Positions 49,105 to 64,000 of a DNA stretch of 64,000 nt are shown piece by piece. Source of the stretch: Eubacteriales bacterium (GTDB lineage: Bacteria > Bacillota > Clostridia > Oscillospirales > CAG-272); contig JAZOWN010000015.1 in NCBI GenBank assembly GCA_045659245.1, forward strand, positions 4,618-68,617, in the 5' to 3' direction. Both the position numbers and the translations under genes were made by a program. The notes below the pieces were generated by a model. The model saw only the letters and a list, made by a program, of their open reading frames with translations. It had not been told where the DNA came from and ran no database searches. Position 1 is the stretch's first letter. The number at the start of each line of letters is the position of its first letter.

Positions 49105-49170
49105 AAAAAGCGTGTATCAGAGCTTAACACTTTATGTGTTTAGTTCTTGATGCACGCTTTTTCTTTTTTA
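49105..49170. terminator. Long bidirectional terminator hairpin
   Basis: 11-bp stem (49110-49120 / 49147-49157, two G-U pairs) plus an inner aacac/gtgtt stem, flanked by A5 and a T-rich run. Confidence 0.7.
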
Positions 49171-50130: not shown

Positions 50131-50739
50131 ATGCGTGTACAACAAAAAATCGAGACAGAGGTCAATCCGCAGGCTATACTATCAATGTTGGTAGAGCGAG
50201 GTATAGTTGGAGATAAGACTATCAAGGATGTAAAGCAACGTGGAGCTGAGCAACAGCAAAACAGGATAGCCTATCATAATACTAAACTCTTGCTCAAACA
50301 CTACCGTACAATAGCATGGATGCTTGAATGCTTTCCCGATGCGATAGCCAACGAGCTTGAACTTCCGTTTGAACACATAGACGATATTATAGATCATCTG
50401 GATATAGAATTGGCTTACGGTAATAAAAAATTAGAGGAAAAATTGGCAAGTGTTCAAAAAACAAGACAACTTGTAGATAGGGTAAATGATGCGCTTACCG
50501 TTCTTAAAAAGAAGCCGGGAGACGGGGAAAGACTTTACGAGCTTGTATATCTTTCATATATTGCTCCTGAAGAAATGACTCATAATGAGCTATTGTTTCG
50601 CTTAAATATATCCTCAAGACAGTATTACCGTATGCGCGAGCAGGCACTTAGTATACTTTCACTTCGCTTGTGGTCGGCACTTAGCAAGGAATCTGAACTG
50701 TGGTTTGAAATACTTACATTTTTAGATGAGCTTTCATAA
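50131..50739 (+). CDS. Sigma-70 region-4-like / ArpU-RinA-like transcriptional activator
   Basis: The C-terminal ERLYELVYLSYIAPEEMTHNELLFRLNISSRQYYRMREQALSILSLRLW has the pattern of a region-4 HTH, as in mobile-element late-gene activators. Confidence 0.5.
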   Translation: MRVQQKIETEVNPQAILSMLVERGIVGDKTIKDVKQRGAEQQQNRIAYHNTKLLLKHYRTIAWMLECFPDAIANELELPFEHIDDIIDHLDIELAYGNKKLEEKLASVQKTRQLVDRVNDALTVLKKKPGDGERLYELVYLSYIAPEEMTHNELLFRLNISSRQYYRMREQALSILSLRLWSALSKESELWFEILTFLDELS

Positions 50740-50805
50740 AAAGCTTCGTAATTTTTTGCCTATTATTTGCGTATAATTTGGCGTAAAAAAGCGTATAAGT
50801 AGCCG

Positions 50806-50834
50806 ATGACAAGTATATGAAAACATGCTATAAT
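50806..50834 (+). promoter_or_regulatory. Promoter of the pilus/transfer-like operon
   Basis: ATGACA, a 17-nt spacer, then TGcTATAAT (extended -10), ~90 nt upstream of the GTG at 50926. Confidence 0.55.
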
Positions 50835-50925
50835 ATTATCGTGCCAAGGTGGGATTGGTGCAAAGAGCCGTTGAGGGTTACTCCTTTATAACGGCTTTTT
50901 CATTTAAAAAAGAGAGGAGAAGAAA

Positions 50926-51288
50926 GTGAAGAAGCAAAGAACAAAGGAAAAGAAATTGAGAAACGCCTATTGGACGGTCGTTGCTGTTTTGTCTGCGCTT
51001 ATTATATCTGTTCAGCCTATTATGGCAGCCCAAGAAAATATATGGGATAGATTCAGTACCATAATGCAGGATTTTTACGGACAGATACTTGCTATAAGTA
51101 CAATAGTAGCAGTTACTATGGCGGCAGTAGCCCTTGTTATCAGAATGGTATCAAGAAATCAAAAGGCTGTCGATGAAGCAACTGCATGGCTAAAGCGTAT
51201 CGTCATAACGTGGATAATTCTCAATTCACTCGGTCTTATTGTCGCATATTTGCAACCGCTTATAACAGGCGGCAATTATACCGGATAA
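50926..51288 (+). CDS. Secreted two-TM hairpin protein with VirB2/TrbC-like topology
   Basis: GTG start after an AGAGGAGA RBS. A signal peptide ends at IMAA/QE, followed by two hydrophobic helices joined by a basic loop (RMVSRNQK...KR). Confidence 0.4.
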   Translation: MKKQRTKEKKLRNAYWTVVAVLSALIISVQPIMAAQENIWDRFSTIMQDFYGQILAISTIVAVTMAAVALVIRMVSRNQKAVDEATAWLKRIVITWIILNSLGLIVAYLQPLITGGNYTG

Positions 51289-51362
51289 CAGCGAATATTG
51301 AAGGGTGGTGGTGATATACATGAATCGTTGTAATTCAAAATTTAATACGTTATCATAAAAAG

Positions 51363-51396
51363 CGGCTCGATAATAAAAATCGAACCGTTTTTCTTT
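51363..51396 (+). terminator. Terminator-like hairpin (possible attenuator) between the VirB2-like gene and the pilin genes
   Basis: Stem cggctcgat/atcgaaccg (8 of 9 paired) followed by tttttctttt. Confidence 0.5.
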
Positions 51397-51481
51397 TCGG
51401 CAAGACCGAAACAACAAAGAGTGGCAGGACCACATAAAAATCAAAAACAAAACATTTTAAATTTAAAGGAGAAATAAAATT

Positions 51482-51715
51482 ATGAGAAAATTCATCAATA
51501 ACATCAAGACAAAGGCAACCAAGACCTACATTTCCGCAAAGACCGCGCTTGCAGCAAAAAAGGGTGAAGGCTATATCGACACCGCCCTCAAGATCATCAT
51601 TTCTGTCGTAATCGGCGGTGTAATCCTCGCGGCGCTCTACACGCTGTTCAATTCCACCGTTATGCCCACACTCAGCCAGAAGATCTCCGGATTCTTCAAC
51701 TACACGGGCAACTGA
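51482..51715 (+). CDS. Flp-size pilin, copy 1 (non-canonical class III signal)
   Basis: 77 aa: a 28-aa basic leader ending KKG, then EGYIDTALKIIISVVIGGVILAALYTLF, giving a ~49-aa mature protein. Strong AAAGGAG RBS. Confidence 0.6.
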   Translation: MRKFINNIKTKATKTYISAKTALAAKKGEGYIDTALKIIISVVIGGVILAALYTLFNSTVMPTLSQKISGFFNYTGN

Positions 51716-51736
51716 TAAAAGGGGAGGTACGAAAAC

Positions 51737-51970
51737 ATGAGAAAGTTCATTAACAGCGTAAAGAACAAGGCAACCAAGGCGTACATTGCAGGTAAGACTG
51801 CACTTGCGGCTAAGAAGGGCGAGGGATATATCGATACCGCACTGAAAATCATTATCGGCGTAGTTATCGGCGGCGTAATTCTCGCTGCTCTCTATACTCT
51901 CTTTGACTCCACCATCATGCCTACTCTTGAGACCAAGATCAACGGCTTCTTCTCGTATTCCGGTACGTAA
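51737..51970 (+). CDS. Flp-size pilin, copy 2 (tandem paralogue)
   Basis: 62 of 77 residues are identical to copy 1 by manual alignment. It has the same KKG-EGYIDTAL junction. Confidence 0.6.
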   Translation: MRKFINSVKNKATKAYIAGKTALAAKKGEGYIDTALKIIIGVVIGGVILAALYTLFDSTIMPTLETKINGFFSYSGT

Positions 51971-51986
51971 GAAAGTGTGAGCAGAT

Positions 51987-52514
51987 ATGAAGAATATCAT
52001 CACAAACAAACGCGGAGAGGCGTATATCAAGACAGCCCTCATAATCATCATTTCAATCGTAATCGGCGGACTGCTGCTTGGCGGACTGTATCTGCTTTTT
52101 GCAGGAGAGAACGGCGTTATGAAGCAGACGGACGATAAGGTTTACGATATGTTCAACACCGGTGGAGAGATGACTCTCAAGCACGAGGGAACACAGCTCA
52201 TGTATTCCTATGACGGAGATACGTGGAAGAGCGTCAAAGTAACAGGTATGGACGATACAGGTAGGATCACCAATTACTTCACACTTGGCGAGGGCGAGTC
52301 GCTCGTTCATATCGTTTCATACACGCATAGTGCAGGAACTCGTGTCTGTTGCAGTGTGGACGGAAAGGAATGGGTAACATGTGTGGGTGGTTCCTCAATC
52401 ACTTTGCGAACCAACGACTCTAAAACCACCGTTTACGCAAACTGCTCTGACGGAAGATCTTATTATACTACCGACGGCATTGATTGGGTAATGGTCTCAA
52501 CCAAATACTATTAA
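51987..52514 (+). CDS. Pilin-like protein with a C-terminal globular domain
   Basis: N-terminal NKRG-EAYIKTALIIIISIVIGGLLLGG. The C-terminal ~125 aa carry three DGxxW motifs (YDGDTW, VDGKEW, TDGIDW). Confidence 0.55.
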   Translation: MKNIITNKRGEAYIKTALIIIISIVIGGLLLGGLYLLFAGENGVMKQTDDKVYDMFNTGGEMTLKHEGTQLMYSYDGDTWKSVKVTGMDDTGRITNYFTLGEGESLVHIVSYTHSAGTRVCCSVDGKEWVTCVGGSSITLRTNDSKTTVYANCSDGRSYYTTDGIDWVMVSTKYY

Positions 52515-52524
52515 ACGAGGTACT

Positions 52525-53136
52525 ATGATGCCAATAACATACGGAAATATATTTCTCAGAGTTTTCGGTATGTTTTTGTTTGGCGGAGTAGCAATTCTTA
52601 TAGGTGCGATCCTTGATAGAGTAATGAAATCCAAGGGGTACGTAACAAGTACCCCCATTACCCTTATGATAACGGCAGCCGTATCGCTGATACTTTACGG
52701 TCGGTTCGGGTTGTCGGTAACAGCAATACAGGGCGTATTTCTTATGCTCGTATTGCTGTACGCATCCTGCTCCGACCTTACGGATCATACCGTGGACGAT
52801 TACGTGTGGGTGACAGTGTTAGCCTTAGCTCTTATAAATGTGCGAACGGTAGGACTTACTTCAATGCTCATAGGAGCATTTTTTGTGTTTATACCGCAGT
52901 TGCTTATGGCTCTGCTGCCACCTCATAAAACTCTCGGAGGAGCGGACATAAAGCTCTCAACAGCCCTTGCGTTCCTGCTTGGCTGGCAGAGAGGACTTGC
53001 GGCGTATATCATAGGTCTGTTCCTTGCCATCACAGTTATGTGTATCGTAAATAAGATACGTAAAAATAAAGAAAGCAAAGCCTTTGCCCTTGTACCGTTT
53101 CTGTCGATAGCGGCAATGGCAATGTTTATGATCTAA
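52525..53136 (+). CDS. A24-family prepilin peptidase (TadV/CpaA-like, no methyltransferase domain)
   Basis: Polytopic ORF with two Asp motifs: SCSDLTDH and GGADIKL (the GxGDxK type). Confidence 0.75.
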   Translation: MMPITYGNIFLRVFGMFLFGGVAILIGAILDRVMKSKGYVTSTPITLMITAAVSLILYGRFGLSVTAIQGVFLMLVLLYASCSDLTDHTVDDYVWVTVLALALINVRTVGLTSMLIGAFFVFIPQLLMALLPPHKTLGGADIKLSTALAFLLGWQRGLAAYIIGLFLAITVMCIVNKIRKNKESKAFALVPFLSIAAMAMFMI

Positions 53137-53151
53137 CAGAAAGGGAAGAAT

Positions 53152-53943
53152 ATGAATTTCAATTTTCACAAAAGAGATACCCCCGAAAATAACGAATGGG
53201 GAAAAACAGCCGCCAAAAAGAACAAGACGGGAAAGAGTATATTTGCCTCACGTTCCTTTATAGGAATAGTTTGTATCGTACTTGCCCTTATCGTCTGCTT
53301 TGGAGCTGCTCCCGTTATCAACCGTATTTCCGATGAAAAGACGGAGGTAGTCAGAATGAGGAATACGGTGCTTAAAGGTACACAGCTCACCGAGAACGAT
53401 ATTGAGGTAATTTCGGTAGGCTCATTCAATCTTTACGAGGACGTAATTACAGACAAGTCAGAGGTCATAGGTAAATACGTCACGGGAGATATGTATAAGG
53501 GAGAATATATCTTCAAGGAGCATATCACCTCGGACGTCAATACTGCAAACGACATTCTTGGCAGTCTTAACGGAGAGAAGAAAGCTATAAGTGTTACAAT
53601 AGGTTCTTTTGCACTTGGACTTTCAGGTAAGCTTGAAACGGGAGATATTATATCCGTCATAGTATTCGATTCCAAGGACGGTTATGCCCATACACCGCCT
53701 GAGCTTCGGTACGTAAGAGTTATTACATCAACGACCTCGCAGGGTATAGATAAGGCAGACAGAACGGATAATACGCAGCCTGTGACCGTTACCGTCCTTG
53801 TCAATAAGACTCAGGCTGAGCTTCTTGCCGAGTATGAAAAGACGTCGTCAATGCACTTTACTCTGGAATACCGTGGGGAAATAGAAACGGCGCAGCATTA
53901 CCTTGATATACAAGAGGAATATTTTAAGACACAGGAGGGATAA
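53152..53943 (+). CDS. CpaB/RcpC-like pilus assembly protein (TM plus SAF-like domain)
   Basis: N-terminal TM, then VVRMRNTVLKGTQLTENDIEVISVG (SAF-like), and a position matching Tad loci. Confidence 0.55.
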   Translation: MNFNFHKRDTPENNEWGKTAAKKNKTGKSIFASRSFIGIVCIVLALIVCFGAAPVINRISDEKTEVVRMRNTVLKGTQLTENDIEVISVGSFNLYEDVITDKSEVIGKYVTGDMYKGEYIFKEHITSDVNTANDILGSLNGEKKAISVTIGSFALGLSGKLETGDIISVIVFDSKDGYAHTPPELRYVRVITSTTSQGIDKADRTDNTQPVTVTVLVNKTQAELLAEYEKTSSMHFTLEYRGEIETAQHYLDIQEEYFKTQEG

Positions 53944-53945
53944 GT

Positions 53946-54707
53946 ATGTCAGATTACAAAGACAAAATAATCACCGTGTGGGGAAGTCCCCATTCGGGAA
54001 AGACTACGTTTTCCTTAAAGCTCGGACAGGCTCTGTATGAAAAAACAAGAGCCTCGGTAGTCGTTCTGTTCTGTGACGTAACAACTCCCACGATCCCCGT
54101 ACTGTTTCCCAATTTTAAAACAGCGGAGCTTTGTTCCGTTGGTACTGTACTTTCAAAACCGGATATTTATGCCAATGACGTGGTATCCAATCTTATTACC
54201 GTTAAGGAAAGAGGAAATCTCGGATTCCTCGGTTATAAGAATAAGGAGAACAGGTTCAGCTTTCCCGAATATGACGAGGGCAAGGTGCATGAGCTTTTCA
54301 CGGCTATCTCCGAAATAGCGGACTATATCATCGTCGATTGCGAGAGCGTTCCCACAAGCAGCGTGCTTACGGAGTTTTCTCTGAAGAACGCAGAAATAAT
54401 GATAAAGCTCTGTACTCCCGATCTGTCCTGTATCGGCTTTTATCAGTCACAGCACTCTCTTATGCTGACGGGCAAATACTATCCGGATAAGATACTTACC
54501 ATTATGAACGTACCCTCAGCAGACCTTACTATGCTCGCATCGGATGCGGCTATGCACGTGGGTAACGTGGATATTATCGTTCCATACAGCGAAAGTGTGA
54601 GAGATCAATATCTTGAGGGAAGGCTCTATGGGCGGTCTTATGACAGAAAATTTTCACAAGCCGTAGGCAAGGCAGTAGAGGCGGTGAGAAAAGATGGAGC
54701 TGTATGA
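53946..54707 (+). CDS. TadZ/CpaE-like P-loop NTPase
   Basis: Walker A-like WGSPHSGKTT and Walker B-like IIVDCE. It sits directly upstream of the CpaF-like ATPase. Confidence 0.5.
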   Translation: MSDYKDKIITVWGSPHSGKTTFSLKLGQALYEKTRASVVVLFCDVTTPTIPVLFPNFKTAELCSVGTVLSKPDIYANDVVSNLITVKERGNLGFLGYKNKENRFSFPEYDEGKVHELFTAISEIADYIIVDCESVPTSSVLTEFSLKNAEIMIKLCTPDLSCIGFYQSQHSLMLTGKYYPDKILTIMNVPSADLTMLASDAAMHVGNVDIIVPYSESVRDQYLEGRLYGRSYDRKFSQAVGKAVEAVRKDGAV

Positions 54708-55995
54708 CCTCTTAAATCAAACACAGAGGTATATTTCCGAGCATTATTCCGCAGCACTTATAGATAAGAGTAAAGGAACAGAGCTTAAAGCATATATCGG
54801 GAAGTACCTTTACGATACAAGATATACCGTCCCCGGATATGATAGAAATAGCCTTATAGAGAGGCTCTATTGCGAGATGGCGGAGTATTCCATACTGACA
54901 AAGTATTTGAAAAATCCTGACGTTGAGGAAATAAATATCAACGGCTGGGACGACGTGGCGATCACGCATCTCGATGGGCATATTGAAAAATTAAAGGAGT
55001 ATTTCTTCAATCCCGGTCACGCGGTTGACGTTGTAAAGAAGCTCTTACAGCATTCGGGTATGATAATCGACAACGCAACGCCCATGGCTCAAGGACATCT
55101 TCCTAACAATACCCGTATAACAGCTCTCAAGGAGCCAATAGTTGACTCGGACAGAGGTATAGCTGTATCAATAAGAATGCTTCACCCGGCAAGAGTGGAC
55201 AGAGCAATGCTTCTTCGCTCGGAGTCTATCTCCGAGGAGATGTTGTGCTTTCTTGAGACCTGTTTGAGATACGGTGTTTCCTTTGTGGTGGCAGGACGAA
55301 CAAGCTCGGGTAAGACCACATTGCTTAATTCCTTGCTTAGCTCAATACCTGACGGCAAGCGTATCTATACGATTGAAAGCGGAGCGAGAGAGTTATCCCT
55401 CATTAAAAGGGATGAATACGGAAGAGTAGTGAACAACGTAGTTCATACGCTCTCCCGTCATTCGGATAATCCTATACACGTTATTAGCCAAGAGGATTTG
55501 GTTATGGCGGCGCTTCGTTTCGATCCTGACGTTATATGCGTTGGTGAGATGCGAGATAAGGAAGCCCACTCGGCAGTAGAGGCAAGCAGTACCGACCACA
55601 CCGTTGTGACAACTGTTCACGGTGGCGGCGGTAAGTATGCACACCGCCGTATAGCGTTCCTGTCACAAAGACGCTTCCCCATAGATATGCGAATATCCTT
55701 GCAACAAGCGGCGCTTGCATTTCCTATAGTAGTGTTTGCACATAAGCTTGAGGATAACAGACGAAAGGTAATGGATATTACCGAGTGTATCGTACACGAC
55801 GACGGAGAGCTTGAGTACAGAACGCTATACAGATACGCCATACACAGCAACGAATACAAGGACGGAGTGTTTTCCATAAACGGTGAGTTTATAAAGGAGA
55901 ACGCCATATCCGACAACCTGCGTCAGAAGCTTATGCGTGGCGGAGTTCCCGAGAAGCTTTTGCGAAAATTTGAGAAAGGAGCTAAGACACAATGA
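54694..55995 (+). CDS. CpaF/TadA-type secretion ATPase (VirB11-related superfamily)
   Basis: Walker A AGRTSSGKTTLLN, Asp/Walker B VICVGEMRD, and His box TTVHGG. Confidence 0.85.
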   Translation: MELYDLLNQTQRYISEHYSAALIDKSKGTELKAYIGKYLYDTRYTVPGYDRNSLIERLYCEMAEYSILTKYLKNPDVEEININGWDDVAITHLDGHIEKLKEYFFNPGHAVDVVKKLLQHSGMIIDNATPMAQGHLPNNTRITALKEPIVDSDRGIAVSIRMLHPARVDRAMLLRSESISEEMLCFLETCLRYGVSFVVAGRTSSGKTTLLNSLLSSIPDGKRIYTIESGARELSLIKRDEYGRVVNNVVHTLSRHSDNPIHVISQEDLVMAALRFDPDVICVGEMRDKEAHSAVEASSTDHTVVTTVHGGGGKYAHRRIAFLSQRRFPIDMRISLQQAALAFPIVVFAHKLEDNRRKVMDITECIVHDDGELEYRTLYRYAIHSNEYKDGVFSINGEFIKENAISDNLRQKLMRGGVPEKLLRKFEKGAKTQ

Positions 55996-56918
55996 CCTTT
56001 ATTTATATTTTGTGTTTTATACTTATTGCGGTAGGTATCATATTCGCTTTGGGGCTTACACCCGAAGGATTGACACACGACATCTCGCCGCTTTTCAATA
56101 AAAAGCGGACTCTCAGAGAAAAGTCACTTACGGCAAGGGGTAAGAAAAAGACACGGAGAATGGTGCTTGAGATATACCGCATAAAGACGGCTCTTGAGGA
56201 GACGGGGAAGGATAAACAGTTTTCCGTCGCCTACGCCGCATCGGTTGTTTTGCTTATCGTAGGCTGTATGGTAGCCATAATCATAGACAATCTATTTCTC
56301 ATACCCGTATTCGCTCTGACCTTTGCTATGATACCGTTCGTGTATCTTAAAAGCACTATCAATCTATATGAAAAGCACGTAAAGGAGGACTTGGAAACGG
56401 CGCTGTCTATTATTACGACCTCTTACGTTCGTAACGACAATATCATAGTAGCGGTCAGTGAGAACATACGCTACCTAAAGCCGCCTATAAAGGGGATATT
56501 CGAGAGCTTCCTTGCGGAGACATCAACCATTACTCCCGACGTAAAGGCAGCTATACTTCATCTGAAAGAGAAGATAAATGACAGTATATTTGAGGAATGG
56601 TGTGACGTGCTGCTGTCCTGCCAGAATGACAGAACGCTGAAGGATACGCTTATGCCTGTTGTATCCAAGCTGACGGACGTAAGACTTGTAAATAACAGTC
56701 TTAAAACGATGCTGGATAACGCAAAAAAAGAGTATTACACGATGGTGGTAATGGTGCTTGCAAACATACCCATTCTGTATATCATCAATAAGGATTGGTA
56801 TGACGCGCTTATGCACACAACGCTTGGTAAGGCTGTCCTTGCTATCTGCGCTCTTGTTATCTTTATAACGTCTATGAGGCTTGGTAAGATAACCAAGCCT
56901 GTAGAGTATAAGAGATAG
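55992..56918 (+). CDS. TadB-like platform protein (GspF/T2SSF family)
   Basis: 308 aa with an N-terminal TM, a cytoplasmic helical domain and C-terminal TMs. It overlaps the ATPase gene by 4 nt. Confidence 0.6.
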   Translation: MTFIYILCFILIAVGIIFALGLTPEGLTHDISPLFNKKRTLREKSLTARGKKKTRRMVLEIYRIKTALEETGKDKQFSVAYAASVVLLIVGCMVAIIIDNLFLIPVFALTFAMIPFVYLKSTINLYEKHVKEDLETALSIITTSYVRNDNIIVAVSENIRYLKPPIKGIFESFLAETSTITPDVKAAILHLKEKINDSIFEEWCDVLLSCQNDRTLKDTLMPVVSKLTDVRLVNNSLKTMLDNAKKEYYTMVVMVLANIPILYIINKDWYDALMHTTLGKAVLAICALVIFITSMRLGKITKPVEYKR

Positions 56919-56929
56919 GGGGGAGCAAT

Positions 56930-57805
56930 ATGGTAATAATAGCACAGATCATCGTAGGACTTCTTGTTGGTGTCGGTATAGGTATTATACTTATAGACAG
57001 GTTAAAGCTCCCGTCTATAAGAGCTGTGACTGCTCTTGGCAATCTCGGGAAAAAGGGAGATAAGAAGATAAGCGCATTGGAGATATATCTCGGTGATTTT
57101 TCAGCCTTTATTTCCAAGCGTATAAAGCTCAACGAATACAAGAGAGCCCAGCTTGAAGCGGATCTGCGGACGGCAAGTATGGAGATAACCCCCGAAAGGT
57201 ACGTATCTGACGCACTCGTTAAAGCTCTTATTTTAGGCGTGTTCGCAATACCCGCATTCTTTGTATTCAAGATAGCGGCTGTTGTGGTTATACTTATAGC
57301 CGTACTCATTTATTTCAAGGAATACACGGCGGTAAGCAATAGGATAAGAGAGAGACGAAAGAGAATAGAATACGAGCTTCCGAGGTTCGTAGGCTCTATT
57401 GAGAAAACTATGCAGCACAGCCGTGACGTTATCCATATACTCGAATCCTATAAGGAGATAGCGGGTGAGGATATGAAAAGGGAGATAGACATTACCGTTG
57501 CGGATATGAAGTCCGGTAACATTGTGGTTGCCCTGACACGTCTTGAAACAAGAGTAGGATCTACTATGATGAGCGACGTAACGAGAGGTCTTATCGCTCT
57601 TAACAGAGGAGACGATAACCATATCTATTGGGGACAGCTCGTTCTGAAGTTCGCGGACTACCAGCGACAGCTTCTCCGTCAGCAGGCGGATAAAGTACCG
57701 AGAAAGGTGAAAAGACTTTCTATGGCTCTTATGTTCTGCTTTATGCTCATCTATGTGGTTGTTATAGGGCAGGTGCTTGTAACCTCGCTTGGCTCTATTT
57801 TGTGA
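56930..57805 (+). CDS. TadC-like platform protein (GspF/T2SSF family)
   Basis: 291 aa with the same architecture as the preceding gene. Confidence 0.6.
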   Translation: MVIIAQIIVGLLVGVGIGIILIDRLKLPSIRAVTALGNLGKKGDKKISALEIYLGDFSAFISKRIKLNEYKRAQLEADLRTASMEITPERYVSDALVKALILGVFAIPAFFVFKIAAVVVILIAVLIYFKEYTAVSNRIRERRKRIEYELPRFVGSIEKTMQHSRDVIHILESYKEIAGEDMKREIDITVADMKSGNIVVALTRLETRVGSTMMSDVTRGLIALNRGDDNHIYWGQLVLKFADYQRQLLRQQADKVPRKVKRLSMALMFCFMLIYVVVIGQVLVTSLGSIL

Positions 57806-57813
57806 GGTGAGCT

Positions 57814-58221
57814 ATGAGAAGAATACGAAACAGAAAAGGCGAGGGATACGTTGACGTAGCTGTTGCGATACTCGTTATATCTTTTTTGCTCATACTCCTT
57901 GTCAGCGTTTTCGGAATAATACATCAAAAGCAGACACTAAACCAGATGGCAGAGCAGATCGTCGAGGTAGCGGCAATAAACGGCTGTGTTGACGGTGAAG
58001 CTATGGAACGCTTTGAGGTTTTGTGTGAGCAGATGGGAGTAACCCCACAGATTTCCTTTGACGTGGAATACTATGACGAGGACAGCGGTAAGGTTCAGCT
58101 TGGGGATATTATCTCTTGTACGCTTACTATGGATACCTCACTCATAGGCTTTGGCGGTGAGCTGTTTCCCATAGAGCTTACAGTCACCGCAAACGGCGTG
58201 TCGCAGGTATATTGGAGGTAG
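57814..58221 (+). CDS. TadE-like pseudopilin
   Basis: N-terminal NRKG-EGYVDVAVAILVISFLLILLVSVF, followed by a ~100-aa domain. Confidence 0.55.
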   Translation: MRRIRNRKGEGYVDVAVAILVISFLLILLVSVFGIIHQKQTLNQMAEQIVEVAAINGCVDGEAMERFEVLCEQMGVTPQISFDVEYYDEDSGKVQLGDIISCTLTMDTSLIGFGGELFPIELTVTANGVSQVYWR

Positions 58222-58224
58222 GCT

Positions 58225-58668
58225 ATGAGGATACTCAAGGATAAGCGGGGCATGAGCTACGTGCTTGTGTGTGTCGTGGTACTCATAGCCTCAATGCTCA
58301 TATACGTGGGCTTGGAGTATAATTCAGCTGTATTTGCAGTGAAGATGCAAAAGCAGGATGTATCCGTGAAGTTGGACAATGTGATAGCGGATACGCTGAG
58401 GGAGAGCATAGAGAACAGCACGCCAATAAGCGATAAGCAATTAGAGCAACGGGCATACGAGGCTCTTGGCTTTGAAAACATAAATACACAGATAAGGGAC
58501 GGTGACGGGCATTCTATGTCAAGACCGTCCTTTTTTATTATAATGGGAACGGATATATCTATAACGGCAGAGTATGAGCTGACTGTACCTTTCAGGCTTC
58601 TTGATGCCGAAGTGATAGATATTACCGTTCCCGTAAGAGTAACAGCAAAATATTACGAAAGGAATTGA
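58225..58668 (+). CDS. Pseudopilin-like protein
   Basis: N-terminal DKRG-MSYVLVCVVVLIASMLIYVG, followed by a ~115-aa domain. Confidence 0.45.
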   Translation: MRILKDKRGMSYVLVCVVVLIASMLIYVGLEYNSAVFAVKMQKQDVSVKLDNVIADTLRESIENSTPISDKQLEQRAYEALGFENINTQIRDGDGHSMSRPSFFIIMGTDISITAEYELTVPFRLLDAEVIDITVPVRVTAKYYERN

Positions 58669-58670
58669 CA

Positions 58671-58898
58671 ATGGCAGAAATAAATAAAAGAAATTTAAGA
58701 GCGGTGACAAGACTTATTGAGGCGGGGATCACCGACGAAAAGGAGATAGTAAATCTCGGCATATCCCGCCTTTTGGCGATACCCAATATAACGATTCAGG
58801 AGCTTTCAGCTATAAATGAGCTTCAGAAAGCAGTAAAGGCAGGGAAGGTAATATCCTTCCTCGCAGGTGAGGTGGACGATGAAGCTGGAAGAACTTAA
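58671..58898 (+). CDS. Small soluble protein, possible helix-hairpin-helix-like fold
   Basis: 75 aa from the ATG at 58671 (AAAGGAA RBS). The pattern LIEAGITDEKEIVNLGISRLLAIPNITIQELSAINELQ recalls HhH or alpha-CTD-like motifs. This is weak inference. Confidence 0.3.
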   Translation: MAEINKRNLRAVTRLIEAGITDEKEIVNLGISRLLAIPNITIQELSAINELQKAVKAGKVISFLAGEVDDEAGRT

Positions 58899-59577
58899 GC
58901 TCTGGCGGGAGCGCGAGCTGCTCTGTGATGATATACCGAAAGAATACGGCTTTCTCGGAGCAATATACGGCGTTTTCCGTGACGGCACCATAGATTGCGG
59001 AACGGAATTCCCATCAGGCTTTGGCAAGGAGCTTCAATGTGAGTTCGGCAGACTCGTCAGCCACTTGCAGAGCGAGGGAGAGTGCTTTCTACGAGACTTT
59101 GGCAGTATGCGAGAATATTGCCGTAACCACCCTCACGCGCACGTGCCGTATAAATTCAACAGAGAGTGCTGGGGCTTTCGCGTACTTACGGACAAATATG
59201 CGTGGTATATAGCCTTCACTCCTTGGAACGACGGACGTCACTTTATCGTATATTGCTACGATAGAGAAAAGCTCTTTTTCTGTCTATCCGAGGAAAGGGG
59301 ATTGGCGGTTGAGTGCTTCGGTATATTACCCTTTACGGGGGAGCGGATATTTATCCGCTTCGGTGAGGACGGTTACACCGTGTGTACCGACGATCTCGAT
59401 ACGTTAGAGGATAACAGGATCATAGTTATGGCACAGAACGGAATGTGCGGTATAACGAGAGCGCAGGTATCTGCAATGCAGAATGGAGCTATATACGGTT
59501 GGGATACACCGCTTGCTGATCCGAAACGATATGATGAGAATGGATATCTGAAAATCGGTTTGGAATTCGATACGTAG
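58879..59577 (+). CDS. Cys-rich hypothetical protein with a conjugative-element-type C-terminal motif
   Basis: ATG at 58879 after GAGGTGG. The C-terminal GITRAQVSAMQNGAIYGWDTPLADPKRYDENG resembles a short domain I recall from large Firmicute ICE/plasmid proteins. Confidence 0.4.
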   Translation: MKLEELKLWRERELLCDDIPKEYGFLGAIYGVFRDGTIDCGTEFPSGFGKELQCEFGRLVSHLQSEGECFLRDFGSMREYCRNHPHAHVPYKFNRECWGFRVLTDKYAWYIAFTPWNDGRHFIVYCYDREKLFFCLSEERGLAVECFGILPFTGERIFIRFGEDGYTVCTDDLDTLEDNRIIVMAQNGMCGITRAQVSAMQNGAIYGWDTPLADPKRYDENGYLKIGLEFDT

Positions 59578-59594
59578 AACAGAGGTGATAAGCT

Positions 59595-61652
59595 TTGTTT
59601 GATTGGATATTTGAAGGCATAGCCACGTGGATAGCAAAGGTTTCTACCGAACTGCTTGACGTAGTATCCGGTTTGTTCTTATCTGCACTCGGTACGGATA
59701 TGACGGCTATGGAAGAATATTTCCCATTCATTTCGACTGCTTTTACAGTTATGCAATATACGGCGTGGGCGCTGTTGTTTATTATTACCGTTTGGCAACT
59801 GTTCAAAGCCTTTGGCGGACCTCTGACGGATGCGGAAGAGCCGTGGGGACTAATTATGAAAAGCTCTCTGTTCGCATTTCTTATATACTTCGCAAAGCCT
59901 ATATTCCTTTACGTTCTGAATATTGCACGGGCGCCATATACGGCGCTTATGGAAATCGAGATGGCAAATGAGGATTTCACCTTTGCCGGTATTGGGGAAA
60001 TAATAGGAAATGGGATTGTGGATATCGCATCAACGTTAAGCGTGGTAGGTGTTATACTCCAAACTATACTGCTTATAACGCTTGGTTGGAACTATTTTAA
60101 GCTGTTGCTTGAGATAGTTGAAAGATATGTGGTAGTAGGAATCCTTTGCTATACGTCACCGCTTGCCTATTCAATGGGAGCATCAAGATCCACCTCGCAG
60201 GTGTTCAAATCGTGGTGCCGTATGATAGGCTCACAACTGTTGTTGCTTGTTATGAACGTGTGGTTTTTAAGAGCTTTTAATAGCTCGGTAGGACAGTTCA
60301 TGGTGAATGGTGGAGGGCTTAGCAACGGTAAAGGTAATCTCTTTTTATGGTTGTTCTGTGCCATAGCATTTTTGAAAATTGCTCAAAAGTTCGATTCTCA
60401 CCTTTCGGCAATAGGTTTGAATGTGGCACAAACTGGAACGGGCCTTGGAATGGAAATACTTATGGCTGCCAAGAGTGTTGTAAGCCTTGGCAAGTGCGTT
60501 ACAGGCTCAGGTAGGGTATTCAAGGGAACTATGGGAGCCAAATTCGGCGGATTTACCGACAGATACAGAGCTAATTCATTTGTAAGAGATTCTGTTGTTC
60601 AAGGCGGAACGAGAATGGGAGCCGGTGGATCTGTTGGATTTATCGGTCGTATGTTCGGTGGTGTAGCAGCAAGGAACGGAGCTGTCCTTTCGGGATGTTC
60701 CATATCTTCTGTTGCAAGTAGAACACCTGATGTGTCGGGAAAGATAGCAGGAGATATTGCAGACAGAAGCCTTGCAAACTATATGCCGCAGATGCAGGGA
60801 AAGACACTTAGCGGAACACAGATAACAGGCGGTCATATTTCTACCGTAGTAACTACTGCCGACGGAAAAACAGCCACCGTGGGACTTTACAATACCGAAC
60901 AGTTTGATAAGCCCACAGGAGCGCACTCAATAGTAACGGCTTCTGACGGAACGAAATGGTATCAGGTAGCAAGCGGCGCAGGTGCTGGGGAGCTTTACAA
61001 TACTCCGCAGTTTACAGGCTCTATATATGAAGCATCTCAGGTATCCGAGTTCTTCCCAAGTGCCGCAGAAGGAACTATACTGCGCACTATAGGCGCGGGA
61101 GAGATAGCGGCGTCCACACCCGATGGAGAGAGCGTTTGGTATCACAGCGCATATTATAGTGAGCCTGACGCACCCCACGATACGGTGCAGTCCTATGACG
61201 GCTCGGATTGGTATGCAATGAAGCCTCACGCGCAAACGCCTAGTTTTGAAGACGGTGAAGAAGCGTCAGAGTACAACCGAGCAAGGTTCAGAGAATTTAT
61301 GCCGGGATACGAGGAAAACGTTACGGTAGTGGATGCGGAGGACGGACAAATCGAGCTTCGTCACGAGGATGGTTCGGGTACAAAACTTTACGATGCAACT
61401 CAATACGACACACCGAGAGGAGAGTATGCGATATATGAGGACAGAAACGGTGACACTTGGTACGGTATTCACGGAGAAGCTGCCGTAGAGAAACGTCCCG
61501 TATATGAAAATGGAGAGCCGGTTTATGACGGAGAACGATTACGTACCGTAAACGAGCCTACCGTTAGATACAGAAATATTCCAAACCACTATGAAGCTCC
61601 CCAAGCACATGAAATAAAAGAGCAAAGACCGCCAAGCCGAAGAAAGACGTAA
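59595..61652 (+). CDS. Polytopic membrane protein, VirB6/TrbL-like N-terminal half, repeat-containing soluble C-terminal half
   Basis: TTG start after AGAGGTGA. It has ~6-7 TMs in the first ~330 aa, with an N-terminus (MFDWIFEGIATWIAK...) like Firmicute TrbL-family proteins. The C-terminal half has four xGxxWY motifs. Confidence 0.5.
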   Translation: MFDWIFEGIATWIAKVSTELLDVVSGLFLSALGTDMTAMEEYFPFISTAFTVMQYTAWALLFIITVWQLFKAFGGPLTDAEEPWGLIMKSSLFAFLIYFAKPIFLYVLNIARAPYTALMEIEMANEDFTFAGIGEIIGNGIVDIASTLSVVGVILQTILLITLGWNYFKLLLEIVERYVVVGILCYTSPLAYSMGASRSTSQVFKSWCRMIGSQLLLLVMNVWFLRAFNSSVGQFMVNGGGLSNGKGNLFLWLFCAIAFLKIAQKFDSHLSAIGLNVAQTGTGLGMEILMAAKSVVSLGKCVTGSGRVFKGTMGAKFGGFTDRYRANSFVRDSVVQGGTRMGAGGSVGFIGRMFGGVAARNGAVLSGCSISSVASRTPDVSGKIAGDIADRSLANYMPQMQGKTLSGTQITGGHISTVVTTADGKTATVGLYNTEQFDKPTGAHSIVTASDGTKWYQVASGAGAGELYNTPQFTGSIYEASQVSEFFPSAAEGTILRTIGAGEIAASTPDGESVWYHSAYYSEPDAPHDTVQSYDGSDWYAMKPHAQTPSFEDGEEASEYNRARFREFMPGYEENVTVVDAEDGQIELRHEDGSGTKLYDATQYDTPRGEYAIYEDRNGDTWYGIHGEAAVEKRPVYENGEPVYDGERLRTVNEPTVRYRNIPNHYEAPQAHEIKEQRPPSRRKT

Positions 61653-61667
61653 GAGAAGGTAATTTCT

Positions 61668-62564
61668 ATGGCAGATACTAAAAGTCAGAATGTCGGGGAA
61701 GGTCAGGATAATTATGCTCAAGCCGCAAAGCAAGGATATAAGGCTGCTGAGAAGATTGCAAAAAGTGCGGCAAAGTCGGCGGCAGAAGCATCTGCAAACG
61801 CTGCTGCATCAAGTGTAAAAGCAGGGGTTGAGGGCGGAAAGGCAGTTGCTGAAATTGCCGCAGGAACATCAACGGGAGGTCCTTGGGGCGCGATAATATC
61901 TGCGGCTTGGTCTTTGCGGCATACACTATTCAAAATTCTTGTTTGTGTTTGCCTTTTTATCGTTATACTTATAACCGTAGTCGTATCCATACCGGATATT
62001 ATCTTTCAGGACATTAAAGATAATTTTTCAGGTGTTGACAATATTGAGGTGAACACATTAGATGTGACTTATATGAGCCTTGCAGAGGATATTGAGAGAA
62101 GCGTAGATGAAGCGTACGAGAAAGCAAAAGAAAAAGCCCGAAGCATAATTTCGGACGAAAAATACGACAGAGAGCTGTCTTACGTGAGCTTTGATGAAAC
62201 GCTTGACGAGGCATATAATTACGACGTTGCGTATATCCTCGCAGTTTATTCTATATCCAAAGAGCAAAACGGTACGAGCAAATCACAGCTTATAAGCAGA
62301 CTTGAAGCTTCGTCGGATATGCTGTTTACGGTTGTGACTGTAGAAAAAACGGCTGAGGTTACAAGAGAGGTCGACGGAGAAACAAAGACCTTTGACGCGG
62401 CGTATGCCGTATGTACTATTGAATTGTACGACAGGGAAAAGCTACTTGATATATTTGGGGTGGAAAAGGATGCGGAATATAAGAATTACGGAATTACTTG
62501 CGGTGAGTACGCAGAATATATGGCGACAGCCTTGAGTATGATACAAAAAAACGAGACACAGTAA
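61668..62564 (+). CDS. Membrane protein with an Ala/Lys-rich N-terminus, one TM and a ~190-aa outer domain
   Basis: Low-complexity AAKSAAKSAAEASANAAASS, the TM ILVCVCLFIVILITVVVSI, and a domain with YDVAYILAVYSI that recalls the N-terminal module of conjugative-element wall hydrolases. No hydrolase domain is present. Confidence 0.4.
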   Translation: MADTKSQNVGEGQDNYAQAAKQGYKAAEKIAKSAAKSAAEASANAAASSVKAGVEGGKAVAEIAAGTSTGGPWGAIISAAWSLRHTLFKILVCVCLFIVILITVVVSIPDIIFQDIKDNFSGVDNIEVNTLDVTYMSLAEDIERSVDEAYEKAKEKARSIISDEKYDRELSYVSFDETLDEAYNYDVAYILAVYSISKEQNGTSKSQLISRLEASSDMLFTVVTVEKTAEVTREVDGETKTFDAAYAVCTIELYDREKLLDIFGVEKDAEYKNYGITCGEYAEYMATALSMIQKNETQ

Positions 62565-62586
62565 TCTAACGGTTACTATGTCTCGT
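62546..62586 (-). terminator. Terminator of the convergent AAA ATPase gene, overlapping the end of the plus-strand operon
   Basis: 13-bp stem cgagacacagtaa/ttactatgtctcg (one mismatch). The T7 run is on the minus strand. Confidence 0.6.
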
Positions 62587-62629
62587 AGAGGATTGGATAA
62601 AACGATAAATATTTTATACTTGGATACTA

Positions 62630-63883
62630 CTAAAAATTCAAACAGTCGGGATTAAGAAGAAAGTCAAATAAACTTAAAAGATAAATTCCAGCCTCGTTAT
62701 AATGAGAACGTGAAATATCTTTTACGATAATGATTTTCTTAAAAGAGTCGTTTATATGAATAAGAGAGTTTTGCTCCTGTTCTAATTTTTCTTTCGTTGG
62801 AATAGATAAAGCAGTCTGTATATAGTAGCGTTTATCGGATAAATTACAAACGAAATCTACTTCTGATTGCTTTAAAACGCTCTTTTCGCCATTTTGTGAT
62901 GAATAATATTCCACGATGCCTACGTCTACGTTAAAACCACGAATTCGTAATTCATTATAAATGATATTTTCCATAGTGTGAGTTTCTTCGGATTGACGGA
63001 AATTTAATCGTGCATTTCTTAATCCAATGTCGGTAAAATAATATTTTGACGGAGTGTTAATATATTTTCTGCCCTTGATATTGTAGCGTTTTGATTGCTC
63101 AATTAAAAAGGAATCTACAAAGTAATCAAGATAGTTTTTTATAGTGTCAGGGTGCAGTGAAACTTGTTTTTCTGTTTTAAAGGTATTAGATAGCTTTTTG
63201 GGATTGGTCAGTGAGCCAATGCAAGACGAAAGGACGTCAAGCAATTCTTCAAGCTCATAATCACCGCGGACGTTATTTCTTTCACGGATATCTTTTATAT
63301 AAGTTTCAGTAAAGATGTCCTTCAGATAGTTGGATTTGTCTTCTTCAGTTGTAAATTCAAATATTTTAGGTAATCCGCCAAAGTTGATATATTGTGCCCA
63401 TGCTTCTTCTTTTGTTCCTTTAAAGGCTGACATAAACTCAGAAAAAGAAAGTGGTGCGACGTGAATTTGATCTCCGCGTCCTCGAAATTCGGTTATAATA
63501 TCCTTCGATAAAAACTTTGCGTTGCTTCCGGTGACATAGGTGTCTGCATTCTTTATGTGAAGAAAACTATTAAGAACGTCTTCAAATTCAGGGACCAATT
63601 GTACCTCATCAAGAAGTATATAGTACATTTCCTGATCCTTAACGTAGTTATGAACGTAATCACACAAATAATCAGGATCTCTGAATTTCTTGTTTTTTCT
63701 ATCGTCCAATGCGATTTTTAAAATATGATCTTCTTTAATTCCAACGGATAAAAGGTGTTTGTGAAAGAGTTCAAACAAGAGATACGATTTTCCGCACCTA
63801 CGGATACCGGTGATTACTTTTATCATGCCGTTGTGCTTGTGTCGTATAAGTTTATCTAAATACAGATCACGTTTAATTTCCAT
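62630..63883 (-). CDS. AAA-family ATPase with a DUF4143-type C-terminal domain
   Basis: Walker A GIRRCGKSYLL, Walker B ILLDEVQ, and a typical ~400-aa architecture. AT-rich. Confidence 0.8.
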   Translation of the reverse strand: MEIKRDLYLDKLIRHKHNGMIKVITGIRRCGKSYLLFELFHKHLLSVGIKEDHILKIALDDRKNKKFRDPDYLCDYVHNYVKDQEMYYILLDEVQLVPEFEDVLNSFLHIKNADTYVTGSNAKFLSKDIITEFRGRGDQIHVAPLSFSEFMSAFKGTKEEAWAQYINFGGLPKIFEFTTEEDKSNYLKDIFTETYIKDIRERNNVRGDYELEELLDVLSSCIGSLTNPKKLSNTFKTEKQVSLHPDTIKNYLDYFVDSFLIEQSKRYNIKGRKYINTPSKYYFTDIGLRNARLNFRQSEETHTMENIIYNELRIRGFNVDVGIVEYYSSQNGEKSVLKQSEVDFVCNLSDKRYYIQTALSIPTKEKLEQEQNSLIHINDSFKKIIIVKDISRSHYNEAGIYLLSLFDFLLNPDCLNF

Positions 63884-63934
63884 ATTTCCTCCAAATGTTT
63901 TGCTTTTGGGTAACCCCTAAAATTTTTCACTATT

Positions 63935-63963
63935 ATTATACCACATTGCGGATAAAAAATCAA
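63935..63963 (-). promoter_or_regulatory. Putative promoter of the AAA ATPase gene
   Basis: On the minus strand: TTGATT, a 17-nt spacer, then TGgTATAAT, ~50 nt before the ATG. Confidence 0.45.
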
Positions 63964-64000
63964 CAAATTTTAGAAAAAAGTTCTGCAAACCCTAAAAAAA

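Follow-up and report, generated by a model that had tools for sequence, protein, structure and literature searches.

In a gut Clostridia chromosome (Eubacteriales), positions 50926-62564 of the window, the stretch of 64,000 nt (positions 1-64000) analysed here, are best read as the promoter-proximal part of an ICE mating-pair-formation operon. The explanation we favour as probable is that a Tad pilus, embedded in the conjugation operon of an ICE, serves mating-pair formation. The architecture is documented by the window and its near-identical relatives, and from it we infer the function.

ORF calling on the window gives 16 co-directional ORFs on the + strand, g1-g16, and the same 16 genes are called on a metagenome contig (L005) that is 97.7% identical at the nucleotide level over 12.3 kb (window 50255-62541), which supports lowering the 17 ORFs of the preliminary description to 16. 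The ORF calls bear out its shared run of one strand from 50926 to 62564, and its overlaps are exact at 54694-54707 (g7/g8), 55992-55995 (g8/g9) and 58879-58898 (g13/g14). Its gaps of 0-20 nt need correction: from g1 to g16 the spacings are 193, 21, 16, 10, 15, 2, -14, -4, 11, 8, 3, 2, -20, 17 and 15 nt, with both the g1-g2 and the g2-g3 spacer outside that range. A terminator- or attenuator-like hairpin between an A-run and a T-run lies inside the 193-nt g1-g2 spacer (51363-51387), and given this spacer and hairpin a single unbroken transcript for g1 and the rest is not implied. In the window genome, the co-transcription originally proposed may be broken both by this hairpin and by an AAA_14 insertion after g16. 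By consensus match alone, the top candidate for a sigma-70-like promoter is ATGACA-17-TATAAT with an extended TG (50806-50834, + strand), approximately 90 nt 5' of g1. Just 5' of the T4SS operon is up202 (50131-50739, + strand), which is conserved as the first gene of this element family and has a weak DUF1492/sigma-like HTH resemblance (Pfam DUF1492, E=0.026); most of 80 related metagenome loci have an up202 homologue, at 43-60% identity, 5' of their g1 homologue.

The outer genes of the array are of T4SS type, as had been proposed. The first, g1 (50926-51288, + strand), encodes a VirB2/TrbC-like small membrane protein with a signal peptide and two TM helices; Pfam TrbC/VirB2 is matched by 12 of the 16 g1-family members (best 8.7e-6, below cut-off), and g1 itself weakly matches the NCBIfam Mbov_0395 pilin-like conjugal transfer family (E=2.7e-3). 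By family profiles and synteny, g15 (59595-61652, + strand) is a polytopic protein that is VirB6/TrbL-like over residues 1 to ~300, followed by a Gly-rich linker and, at the C-terminus, a beta-rich domain; its family members match TrbL, TrbL_4, MMCAP2_0566 and Mbov_0396, and its homologues occur in T4SS operons. The C-terminal domain is modelled by AF2 with a pLDDT of 70-90, and no PDB match was found for this model. The bitopic g16 (61668-62564, + strand) corresponds to the non-catalytic N-module of conjugative wall hydrolases, given that homologues with 40-46% identity over 96-98% of g16 bear a C-terminal NlpC/P60 or CHAP domain. Its final 7 codons are supplied by inserted DNA (homology to L005 stops at 62541).

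Between these, g2-g12 make up a predicted monoderm Tad set, and the component calls of the preliminary description stand up. Two 77-aa prepilins, g2 and g3 (51482-51970, + strand), match Pfam DUF6133 (4e-24 and 1e-21) and have a leader ending in KKG before EGYIDTAL; they are Flp-size, and the Flp assignments are below, or without, curated HMM cut-off support. A DUF6133 pilin-like N-terminus is also found in g4 (51987-52514, + strand), which adds a C-terminal domain of ~115 aa with three SxDGxxW motifs and is a candidate adhesive minor pilin. Together with g11 (Pfam DUF4320, 8e-33) and g12 (57814-58668, + strand), which are minor pilin or pseudopilin-like, these form five prepilin-like proteins with a common [KR][KR]G-x-x-Y-[IV] motif and hydrophobic helix, in agreement with the pilins and pseudopilins described before. 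The A24 prepilin peptidase g5 (52525-53136, + strand) is above the Pfam Peptidase_A24 cut-off (3e-10, 40.9 bits versus 26.5) and has its two Asp motifs in 'CSDL' and 'GGADIKL'. It is followed by the CpaB/RcpC-like pilus assembly protein g6 (53152-53943, + strand; Pfam RcpC 2e-10 plus SAF, TIGR03177 2e-15) and by g7 (53946-54707, + strand), a TadZ-like P-loop protein (GSPHSGKTT) with weak AAA_31 and MinD matches, located between CpaB and the ATPase. The latter, g8 (54694-55995, + strand), is a CpaF/TadA-type secretion ATPase (Pfam T2SSE 4e-25) whose Walker A box reads GRTSSGKTT and whose Walker B box reads DVICVGEMRD, and which also has a His box; against NCBIfam, VirB11, FlaI and TadA score similarly, all under cut-off. 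For g9 and g10 (55992-57805, + strand), the call as two GspF-family proteins is supported by position, 3-4 TM helices, a weak UpsF match (E=2.3e-4) and 34% identity of g10 to a pTPHSE1 protein named 'secretion protein F' by PGAP, but not by Pfam T2SSF, for which no match was found; we assign them as TadB/TadC-like platform proteins, below curated HMM cut-offs. The soluble proteins g13 (75 aa) and g14 (232 aa; 58671-59577, + strand) have no family match in Pfam or NCBIfam profile searches and travel with the Tad cassette, being located 3' of the Tad genes in L005 and three other loci (L002, L097 and L099), with g14 split in L006 and L009. The cassette is also accompanied by a 768-aa Flg_new/DUF8195 surface protein in L002 and L099.

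Using tblastn, no VirB3, VirB4, VirD4 or ParB homologues are found in window 1-64000. The absence of VirB4 and a coupling protein noted originally therefore holds within the window, but not beyond it, and appears to be an artefact of the window edge. On L005, g16 is followed by genes for a VirB3-like protein, VirB4 (profile matches TraC-like/P-loop_TraG), DUF5697, DUF6100, a 378-aa protein and VirD4. Five of these six T4SS genes (all except DUF6100, of which no copy was found there) have full-length, 98-99% identical counterparts on one 76,141-bp NCBI contig, and the contig with the window's own g15, g16 and AAA_14 proteins is likewise 76,141 bp. A further contig (L092) joins the last 868 bp of the window (63133-64000, 99.1%) to a virB3-like gene 26 bp on. 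Judged by the equal contig sizes and the near-identical contigs from other samples, the T4SS genes appear to restart approximately 30 bp past position 64000. The operon is split between g16 and the virB3-like gene by a foreign, low-GC (0.35) insertion of ~1.5 kb (62542-64000, - strand; ending ~26 bp past the window) with an AAA_14/DUF4143 ATPase gene (62630-63883, - strand; Pfam-type family match) and its hairpin terminator (62551-62586); this cassette may or may not impair transfer in the window genome. Simple juxtaposition had been the reading foreseen if a complete T4SS lay directly beyond the window; the T4SS is there, but the Tad cassette sits between the VirB2-like and VirB6-like genes. 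No relaxase or integrase is seen in the readable parts of the window's element family.

The 80 related loci contain no Tad genes, and where a locus shows both g1 and g15, g1 is located ~390 bp 5' of g15 (L079 is one of the few exceptions). In L001, a Tad-less T4SS locus, the gene directly 5' of the VirB6-like gene is 80% identical to g1 and the spacer to g15 is 38 nt; in Tad-less relatives, g1, g15 and g16 belong to the regular gene set of a VirB4/VirD4 system. The Tad cassette (g2-g12 plus g13 and g14) thus appears to be an insertion between g1 and g15 of an ancestral operon. The position just 5' of the VirB6-like gene looks like an adhesion-module slot: in L079 it is occupied by a sortase, an SLH protein and a 1764-aa thioester-domain/SpaA adhesin, and in L080 by a 3141-aa SpaA-repeat protein. 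Chromosomal genes (FtsZ, GAPDH, HtpG) immediately left of the window's element indicate an ICE context, and in the related L014 the same cluster begins right after addBA/spoIVB.

Tad cassettes of the DUF6133/DUF4320 type, with an ATPase 38-44% identical, recur on the same strand beside other conjugation backbones, three of them on Clostridia plasmids. In Terrisporobacter pTPHSE1 and C. difficile pCd5_2 the cassette lies by a VirD4-like protein of the CD1115 family and a pLS20_p028 VirB6-like protein, and in an Oscillospiraceae MB08-C2-2 plasmid by DUF3852, TrbL, DUF87, M23, a MobP3 relaxase and VirD4. A Subdoligranulum variabile plasmid has the window's T4SS family, but with the Tad cassette downstream, and in L097 and L098 it is 5' of a divergent g1'/g15'/VirB3' set. 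In pMU3262 (Thermoanaerobacterium), a DUF4320-type cassette is near FtsK-like and replication-relaxation genes only, and no clear VirB4/VirD4 was found within 13 kb of it, which counts against a conjugation link.

At the level of sequence, the gene identities, the embedding and the occurrence of the whole T4SS set in near-identical loci and, going by its length, on the contig of the window itself are established; pilus assembly, co-regulation and a mating role are proposed, the last from synteny. The ancestral operon would have consisted of VirB2-like (g1), VirB6-like (g15), g16, VirB3-like, VirB4, DUF5697, DUF6100, the 378-aa protein and VirD4, with a self-contained monoderm Tad (type IVc) cassette entering between g1 and g15 in the window's lineage. 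On element induction, the DUF6133 prepilins would be cut by the A24 peptidase, and a thin pilus would be built by the CpaF-type ATPase with TadZ, TadB, TadC and CpaB, with g11 and g12 as minor pilins priming its assembly and possibly with g4 at its tip. The pilus would capture recipient cells and bring or hold them at the donor surface, forming or stabilising mating pairs, and the DNA itself would pass through the VirB4/VirD4/VirB6 channel. pLS20 needs a thioester-domain adhesin to conjugate efficiently (PMC8092201), and as a precedent, accessory type IV pili of IncI plasmids favour mating in liquid and gut (PMC9045228, PMC12857230).

The preliminary description instead proposed a chimeric filament, DNA-transfer or DNA-uptake machine whose Tad ATPase takes the place of VirB4 and acts together with a VirB2-like/VirB6-like conduit, without a coupling protein. 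VirB4, VirD4 and relaxase are indeed all absent from window 1-64000, g8 scores equally well for VirB11 and TadA, and in PAPI-1 a type IV pilus is essential for transfer (PMC12857230). However, a chimera lacking VirB4 is contradicted by the VirB4 and VirD4 genes directly after g16 in near-identical loci, and the 76,141-bp contig, L092 and the role of g1, g15 and g16 in Tad-less relatives all count against it, making it highly improbable. Since the transfer ATPases follow directly beyond the end of the window, the region probably encodes a conjugation system of Gram-positive type that has a mating pilus of its own, rather than a novel hybrid apparatus. A Tad pilus recruited as a DNA-uptake (competence) or recipient-side device, capturing DNA rather than cells, is also unlikely. 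Such a role would fit the co-located DNA-transfer genes and the requirement for tad genes in Micrococcus luteus transformation, as cited in PMC5696575, but profile searches and L005 reveal no ComEC-, ComEA- or DprA-type genes in or beside the cassette, and the equivalent slot of relatives holds cell-surface adhesins, not DNA-uptake genes.

Tad pili elsewhere mediate adhesion to host or surfaces, and adhesins are frequent MGE cargo. A more serious, though still doubtful, alternative is that the cassette is adaptive cargo, an adhesive pilus for mucus, host cells, food particles or biofilm that has no DNA-transfer role, benefits the host bacterium and came to lie inside the T4SS operon by an accident of insertion. 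This would agree with Tad being the type IV filament class most often horizontally transferred and most often plasmid-borne (PMC6668835), with Bifidobacterium Tad pili as colonisation factors and the adhesive reading of a Cutibacterium acnes plasmid tad locus, its conjugation link left open (PMC5696575), and with the surface protein added to the cassette in L002 and L099. Yet the cassette is inside, not beside, the transfer operon, in a slot otherwise used by large surface adhesins, and homologous same-strand cassettes adjoin at least four different T4SS arrangements. In most cells, the transfer operon of an ICE is normally kept repressed, an expression pattern poorly suited to a colonisation factor.

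For the embedded mating pilus that we favour, parallels exist in IncI1 R64 and IncI2 TP114, which likewise combine a T4SS and a complete type IV filament machine on one conjugative element; their type IVb 'thin' pilus (PilS/PilV) acts in mating-pair formation or stabilisation in liquid or gut (PMC9045228, PMC12857230), and g4, in which a C-terminal domain is added to the pilin part, could be the counterpart of the PilV adhesin. In contrast, the window filament is Tad/type IVc (CpaB, TadZ, CpaF, TadB/C, Flp-size pilins) with a proposed role, its host is a monoderm Clostridia without a secretin, the cassette lies within the T4SS operon itself and no shufflon is seen at the locus. PrgB of pCF10 and the pLS20 adhesin are surface adhesion modules encoded in a transfer operon, and both make mating more efficient (PMC8092201, PMC12857230), and sortase/TED/SpaA adhesins occupy the slot in relatives of the window's element, which itself has a multi-gene ATP-driven pilus instead of a single sortase-anchored protein. 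Cutibacterium acnes linear plasmids (p15.1.R1 type) are alike in gene content, with a tad locus and VirB4/TcpC/FtsK-like genes, and similarity to a Clostridium leptum contig has been noted (PMC5696575); there the modules are adjacent and a functional link was left open, whereas the window-type cassette sits within the operon and is met again beside several T4SS backbones of Clostridia. Faecalibacterium ICEs (Maff2-VirB6-VirB3-VirB4) have the same order of small 2-TM, VirB6-like, VirB3-like/PrgI, VirB4 and VirD4 proteins (PMC12084326) but belong to different protein families: in the window's element the small protein is TrbC/VirB2-like and not Maff2, VirB4 matches TraC-like/P-loop_TraG, the accessories are DUF5697 and DUF6100, and the Tad insertion is added. 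The Pseudomonas aeruginosa ICE PAPI-1 also joins a type IV pilus to VirB4 and VirD4, but with few other T4SS homologues and a pilus that is essential and type IVb, whereas the window's element has a full monoderm T4SS set.

The operon occupies 50926-62564 on the + strand as 16 tightly packed ORFs (g1-g16), and gene calls on L005, a contig 97.7% identical to it, return the same 16. From g1 to g16 the spacings are 193, 21, 16, 10, 15, 2, -14, -4, 11, 8, 3, 2, -20, 17 and 15 nt, and the ORF overlaps named in the preliminary description are correct because the measured distances are negative at those places. The exception to the tight packing is the 193-nt spacer between g1, a VirB2/TrbC-like gene, and g2, in which a hairpin lies between an A-run and a T-run just 3' of the VirB2-like gene (51363-51387). 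This hairpin could be an attenuator that gives a high ratio of g1 to downstream expression, or a bidirectional terminator. The top promoter-like match is located shortly 5' of g1 (50806-50834).

Genes g2-g12 form a Tad pilus cassette. The Tad set proposed earlier holds for the A24 prepilin peptidase g5 (Pfam Peptidase_A24 at 40.9 bits, cut-off 26.5, and two Asp motifs), the RcpC/CpaB protein g6 (Pfam RcpC, 41 bits against 28.8; TIGR03177, 56.7 bits, under its cut-off of 71) and the T2SSE ATPase g8 (Pfam 4e-25, 88.7 bits for a cut-off of 24.9, plus the Walker A, Walker B and His boxes), but it is weaker than implied for g9, g10 and the pilins. The polytopic g9 and g10 fit TadB/TadC in position and TM topology; neither has a Pfam T2SSF match, they are not similar to one another, and for g10 there is a weak match to UpsF (E=2.3e-4) and 34% identity to a PGAP ‘secretion protein F’. 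The P-loop protein g7 is TadZ-like, with AAA_31, MinD and ParA matches that are all weak. Among the pilins, the 77-aa prepilins g2 and g3 belong to Pfam DUF6133 and the minor pilin g11 to DUF4320, and a search of these proteins for Flp_Fap and TadE matches gave none. An N-terminal [KR][KR]G-x-x-Y-[IV] motif followed by a hydrophobic helix is common to five cassette proteins; this motif differs from the Flp G/XXXXEY, and g2, g3 and g11 resemble Flp in size and architecture only. The remaining members are g4 (51987-52514), a 175-aa pilin-like protein with a DUF6133 N-terminus and an additional C-terminal domain, and g12, a pseudopilin-like protein with a prepilin motif. A secretin is absent from the cassette, as expected for a monoderm.

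The earlier CpaF/TadA label for g8 is right as far as the T2SSE ATPase family, but the NCBIfam VirB11, FlaI and TadA models score it equally, every one under its cut-off. We rejected g8 as the VirB11 of a type IV secretion system (T4SS) because it sits within the Tad cassette and moves with its CpaB, TadZ, TadB/C, peptidase and pilin genes. Three SxDGxxW (Asp-box-like) motifs are found in g4 and three [DN]GxxWY motifs in the C-domain of g15 (60750-61652), with no significant similarity between the two C-termini. The soluble protein g14, which travels with the cassette, has a homologue split into 79-aa and 91-aa ORFs in two copies that are otherwise 97% identical (L006 7563-8261 and L009 3312-4010), and since it is split in both it is probably dispensable. 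A sister cassette clade (L002 5892-9059 and L099 3638-6809) carries three additional genes between the pseudopilins and the soluble g13, encoding proteins of 105 aa, 184-187 aa and a 768-aa secreted Flg_new/DUF8195 protein; these may represent a pilus-associated adhesin.

The cassette is flanked by proteins of a different kind, and the three T4SS-like assignments of the preliminary description, namely a VirB2-like g1, a VirB6/TrbL-like g15 and g16 as the N-terminal module of conjugative wall hydrolases, are borne out by family matches and alignments for g15 and g16, and probably for g1. The g1 product has the topology of VirB2/TrbC pilins, a signal peptide and two TM helices. PF04956 (TrbC/VirB2) is matched by 12 of 16 close g1 relatives (best 8.7e-6, all under the 27.9-bit cut-off) and not by g1 itself, and a profile search of PDB sequences with g1 found no pilin. 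The N-domain of g15 is part of a very large family, which at 50% identity forms 2262 clusters and whose C-termini differ in length. Whereas g15 itself has sub-threshold NCBIfam matches only, in 30 diverse family members we found matches to Pfam TrbL (4/30), TrbL_4 (3/30, best 9.7e-7) and both MMCAP2_0566 and Mbov_0396, the NCBIfam models of VirB6-like proteins from mycoplasma ICEs (8/30, best 5.8e-8). The operon context agrees with a VirB6/TrbL-like channel protein. A profile search of PDB sequences with the g15 N-domain returned nothing, and in an AF2 model of full-length g15 (20-sequence MSA, 71-81% identity) the N-terminal TM domain had a pLDDT <50, an unreliable model, so that structural comparison with the VirB6 fold gave nothing; the beta-rich C-domain was confident and had no PDB match. 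Nearly all of g16 (96-98% of its length) aligns with the N-terminal region of proteins of 435-511 aa whose C-terminus is an NlpC/P60 or CHAP domain, which g16 is without. A VirB1-like wall hydrolase is thus not provided by g16, nor by a 378-aa protein encoded further downstream in L005, as neither has a hydrolase domain. A VirB8-like (NTF2-fold) identity for g16 is unsupported, because its confident AF2 ectodomain (residues 130-295, pLDDT 85-95) has no PDB match at E<=1e-3.

By tblastn the window holds no VirB3, VirB4, VirD4 or ParB homologue. The earlier statement that VirB4 and a coupling protein are missing is therefore true of the window, but not of the operon in its closest relatives. L005 matches window positions 50255-62541, contains exactly the same 16 genes and then continues with genes for a VirB3-like protein, VirB4 (823 aa), DUF5697, DUF6100, the 378-aa protein, VirD4 (614 aa), an S1-domain protein and a 1483-aa protein. 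Its VirB4 carries TraC-like/P-loop_TraG domains and its VirD4 carries T4SS-DNA_transf, TrwB_AAD_bind and TraG-D_C; the 103-aa VirB3-like protein matches PrgI at E=8.3e-4, under the cut-off. In L001, whose g15 homologue is 72% identical, g1 (80%) is followed directly by g15, a methyltransferase gene and g16 (53%), and then by genes for a 107-aa protein, VirB4, DUF5697, DUF6100, a 380-aa protein and VirD4. Proteins 98-99.4% identical to the L005 VirB3-like protein, VirB4 (P0308, 98.7%), DUF5697, 378-aa protein and VirD4 (P0347, 99%) are recorded on a 76,141-bp NCBI contig, on which a DUF6100 copy at such identity was not found, and the contig on which the window's g15, g16 and AAA_14 proteins are recorded has the same length. 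Finally, L092 (1358 bp) matches window positions 63133-64000 at 99.1% and 26 bp later matches the virB3-like region of L005. From these comparisons we strongly infer that the window's own T4SS genes resume about 30 bp past its end. The proposal that a Tad motor replaces VirB4 is contradicted by the VirB4 and VirD4 genes downstream of g16 in near-identical copies. No relaxase or oriT was seen in the covered parts of the element family. On L092 (1216-1358) and on L093, both 99% identical to the end of the window, the virB3-like gene encodes 119 aa, against 103 aa in L005. Their homology to L005 breaks off exactly where virB4 begins (L005 12634), which suggests that the virB3/virB4 junction has been rearranged a second time or is a branch point of the assembly.

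The window and L005 part at 62541, 23 nt short of the stop codon of g16, where a low-GC (0.35) cassette of ~1.5 kb (62542-64000) separates g16 from the virB3-like gene. It carries an AAA_14/DUF4143 ATPase gene on the - strand, opposite to the operon (62630-63883), with its terminator hairpin at 62551-62586. Because L092 rejoins the L005 virB3-like region 26 bp past the window, this segment is an insertion of ~1.5 kb; it replaces 24 bp and supplies the final 7 codons of g16. In this genome its presence may have a polar effect on the T4SS genes that follow, or uncouple them. A repeat search in the insertion and at the left edge of the element found nothing att-like or IS-like.

In the window, the sequence left of ~48.6 kb belongs to the chromosome and encodes FtsZ, GAPDH and HtpG, and in the related locus L014 the T4SS cluster starts directly after chromosomal addB/addA/spoIVB. 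The flank in the window and the junction in L014 argue that the element is integrated and that the transfer operon begins near its left end. Between the chromosomal genes and up202, the gene 5' of g1, lie an AbrB/MazE-like gene, a terminator-like hairpin and a 122-aa ORF (48770-48970, 49105-49162 and 49761-50129), the last of which has no homologue in any retrieved locus; this is probably where the element has its left edge and its regulatory region. Far from the operon, at 20001-22000, lies a second stretch of low GC (0.375). Megablast of the locus against PLSDB plasmids gave no close relative, and a scan of genome contigs with g15 found two Eubacteriales MAG loci only.

A metagenome survey with a 9-sequence alignment as query recovered 80 related loci, mostly from human gut, with g15 N-domains 56-76% identical. 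Their order is up202, g1, g15, a variable gene content, g16, VirB3-like, VirB4, DUF5697, DUF6100, 378-aa protein and VirD4, and g1 lies ~390 bp 5' of g15 wherever both are in view, with few exceptions such as L079. None of the 80 loci contains Tad genes; a Tad cassette between g1 and g15 is found in the window clade (L005-L009) and in L002 (~79% nucleotide identity), while L099 has an L002-like cassette with g1 and g15 outside the contig view. Judged by this comparison, the Tad cassette was inserted at a site of variable content. In L079 (455-9494) the g1-g15 slot holds genes for a sortase, an SLH protein and a 1764-aa thioester-domain/SpaA adhesin, and in L080 (508-9933) a gene for a 3141-aa protein that combines an N-terminal M15/VanY peptidase domain with 20 SpaA repeats ends just 5' of g15. 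Because the Tad cassette, the adhesin set and the SpaA protein occupy the same place, the site immediately 5' of the VirB6-like gene behaves as an exchangeable slot for surface adhesion.

Homologous cassettes of the DUF6133/DUF4320 type, with an ATPase 38-44% identical to g8, also adjoin unrelated or distantly related T4SS sets on the same strand. On Terrisporobacter petrolearius pTPHSE1 and C. difficile pCd5_2 the neighbours are VirD4-like proteins of the CD1115 family, a pLS20_p028 VirB6-like protein and DUF5592, and on a plasmid of Oscillospiraceae MB08-C2-2 they are DUF3852, TrbL, DUF87/VirB4, an M23 peptidase, a MobP3 relaxase and VirD4. A Subdoligranulum variabile plasmid has the window's own T4SS family with the Tad cassette ~6 kb 3' of the S1 gene, and in L097 and L098 a cassette 77-90% identical to the window's lies 5' of a divergent g1'/g15'/VirB3' set. 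One Thermoanaerobacterium plasmid has a similar cassette with only FtsK-like and replication-relaxation genes nearby. NCBIfam contains an actinobacterial family named ‘TadA family conjugal transfer-associated ATPase’.

The evidence best supports an ICE conjugation operon in which the embedded Tad pilus cassette would serve mating-pair formation or stabilisation. It is favoured by the embedding of the cassette, by its slot equivalence with adhesin genes and by its recurrence across T4SS backbones, all of which are genomic observations, and from sequence we infer that the pilus is assembled, retracts and takes part in transfer. In the main rival reading the Tad pilus is cargo for colonisation; Tad loci are often mobile (PMC6668835), and there is a precedent in a C. 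acnes plasmid for which the link to conjugation was left open (PMC5696575). A DNA-import system like the archaeal Ced/Ted was rejected, as the host is bacterial, there is no specific similarity and the operon includes VirD4: Ced/Ted consist of a VirB6-like CedA and a HerA/VirB4-like ATPase without a coupling protein, whereas a VirD4 coupling protein is present here. On balance, we put at a little under even the chance that conjugative elements of Clostridia encode a dedicated type IVc (Tad) pilus for mating, possibly a retractile one, as a module that can be exchanged for sortase-anchored giant adhesins at the same operon site, next to a conserved VirB2/TrbC-like protein. Firmicutes would then have their first class of ‘conjugative pilus’.

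Reviews describe Gram-positive conjugation systems as lacking pili and dependent on wall-anchored adhesins, with VirB2 missing from all except those of Patescibacteria (PMC12857230). Tad and conjugation genes have already been noted together on one Gram-positive plasmid (PMC5696575); searches of the literature on DUF6133/DUF4320 and on Tad in Gram-positive conjugation turned up no account of a Tad cassette inside a Firmicute T4SS operon. A mating role, if true, would contradict the current rule, under which conjugation systems of Gram-positive bacteria have no pili. Recipients could then be captured at long range by many elements of gut Clostridia, among them plasmids in relatives of C. difficile. 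This would bear on host range and on how fast transfer proceeds in the flowing, dilute gut, as has been shown for the IncI2 pilus (PMC9045228). The slot 5' of the VirB6-like gene would offer a simple genomic marker of mating-adhesion determinants in uncultured elements, and the conserved VirB2/TrbC-like gene would be a second pilin-type component, in a monoderm T4SS outside Patescibacteria. The mating-pilus hypothesis is directly testable because culturable carriers exist.

Among known systems, the functional analogues would be the type IVb thin pili of IncI plasmids (PMC9045228, PMC12857230) and Gram-positive wall-anchored adhesins such as the thioester adhesin of pLS20 (PMC8092201). A repeat search of limited regions near the locus found no shufflon-like inverted repeats. 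The IncI accessory pilus is built from a type IVb pilin and carries shufflon-diversified PilV adhesins, whereas the machinery here is of the Tad type.
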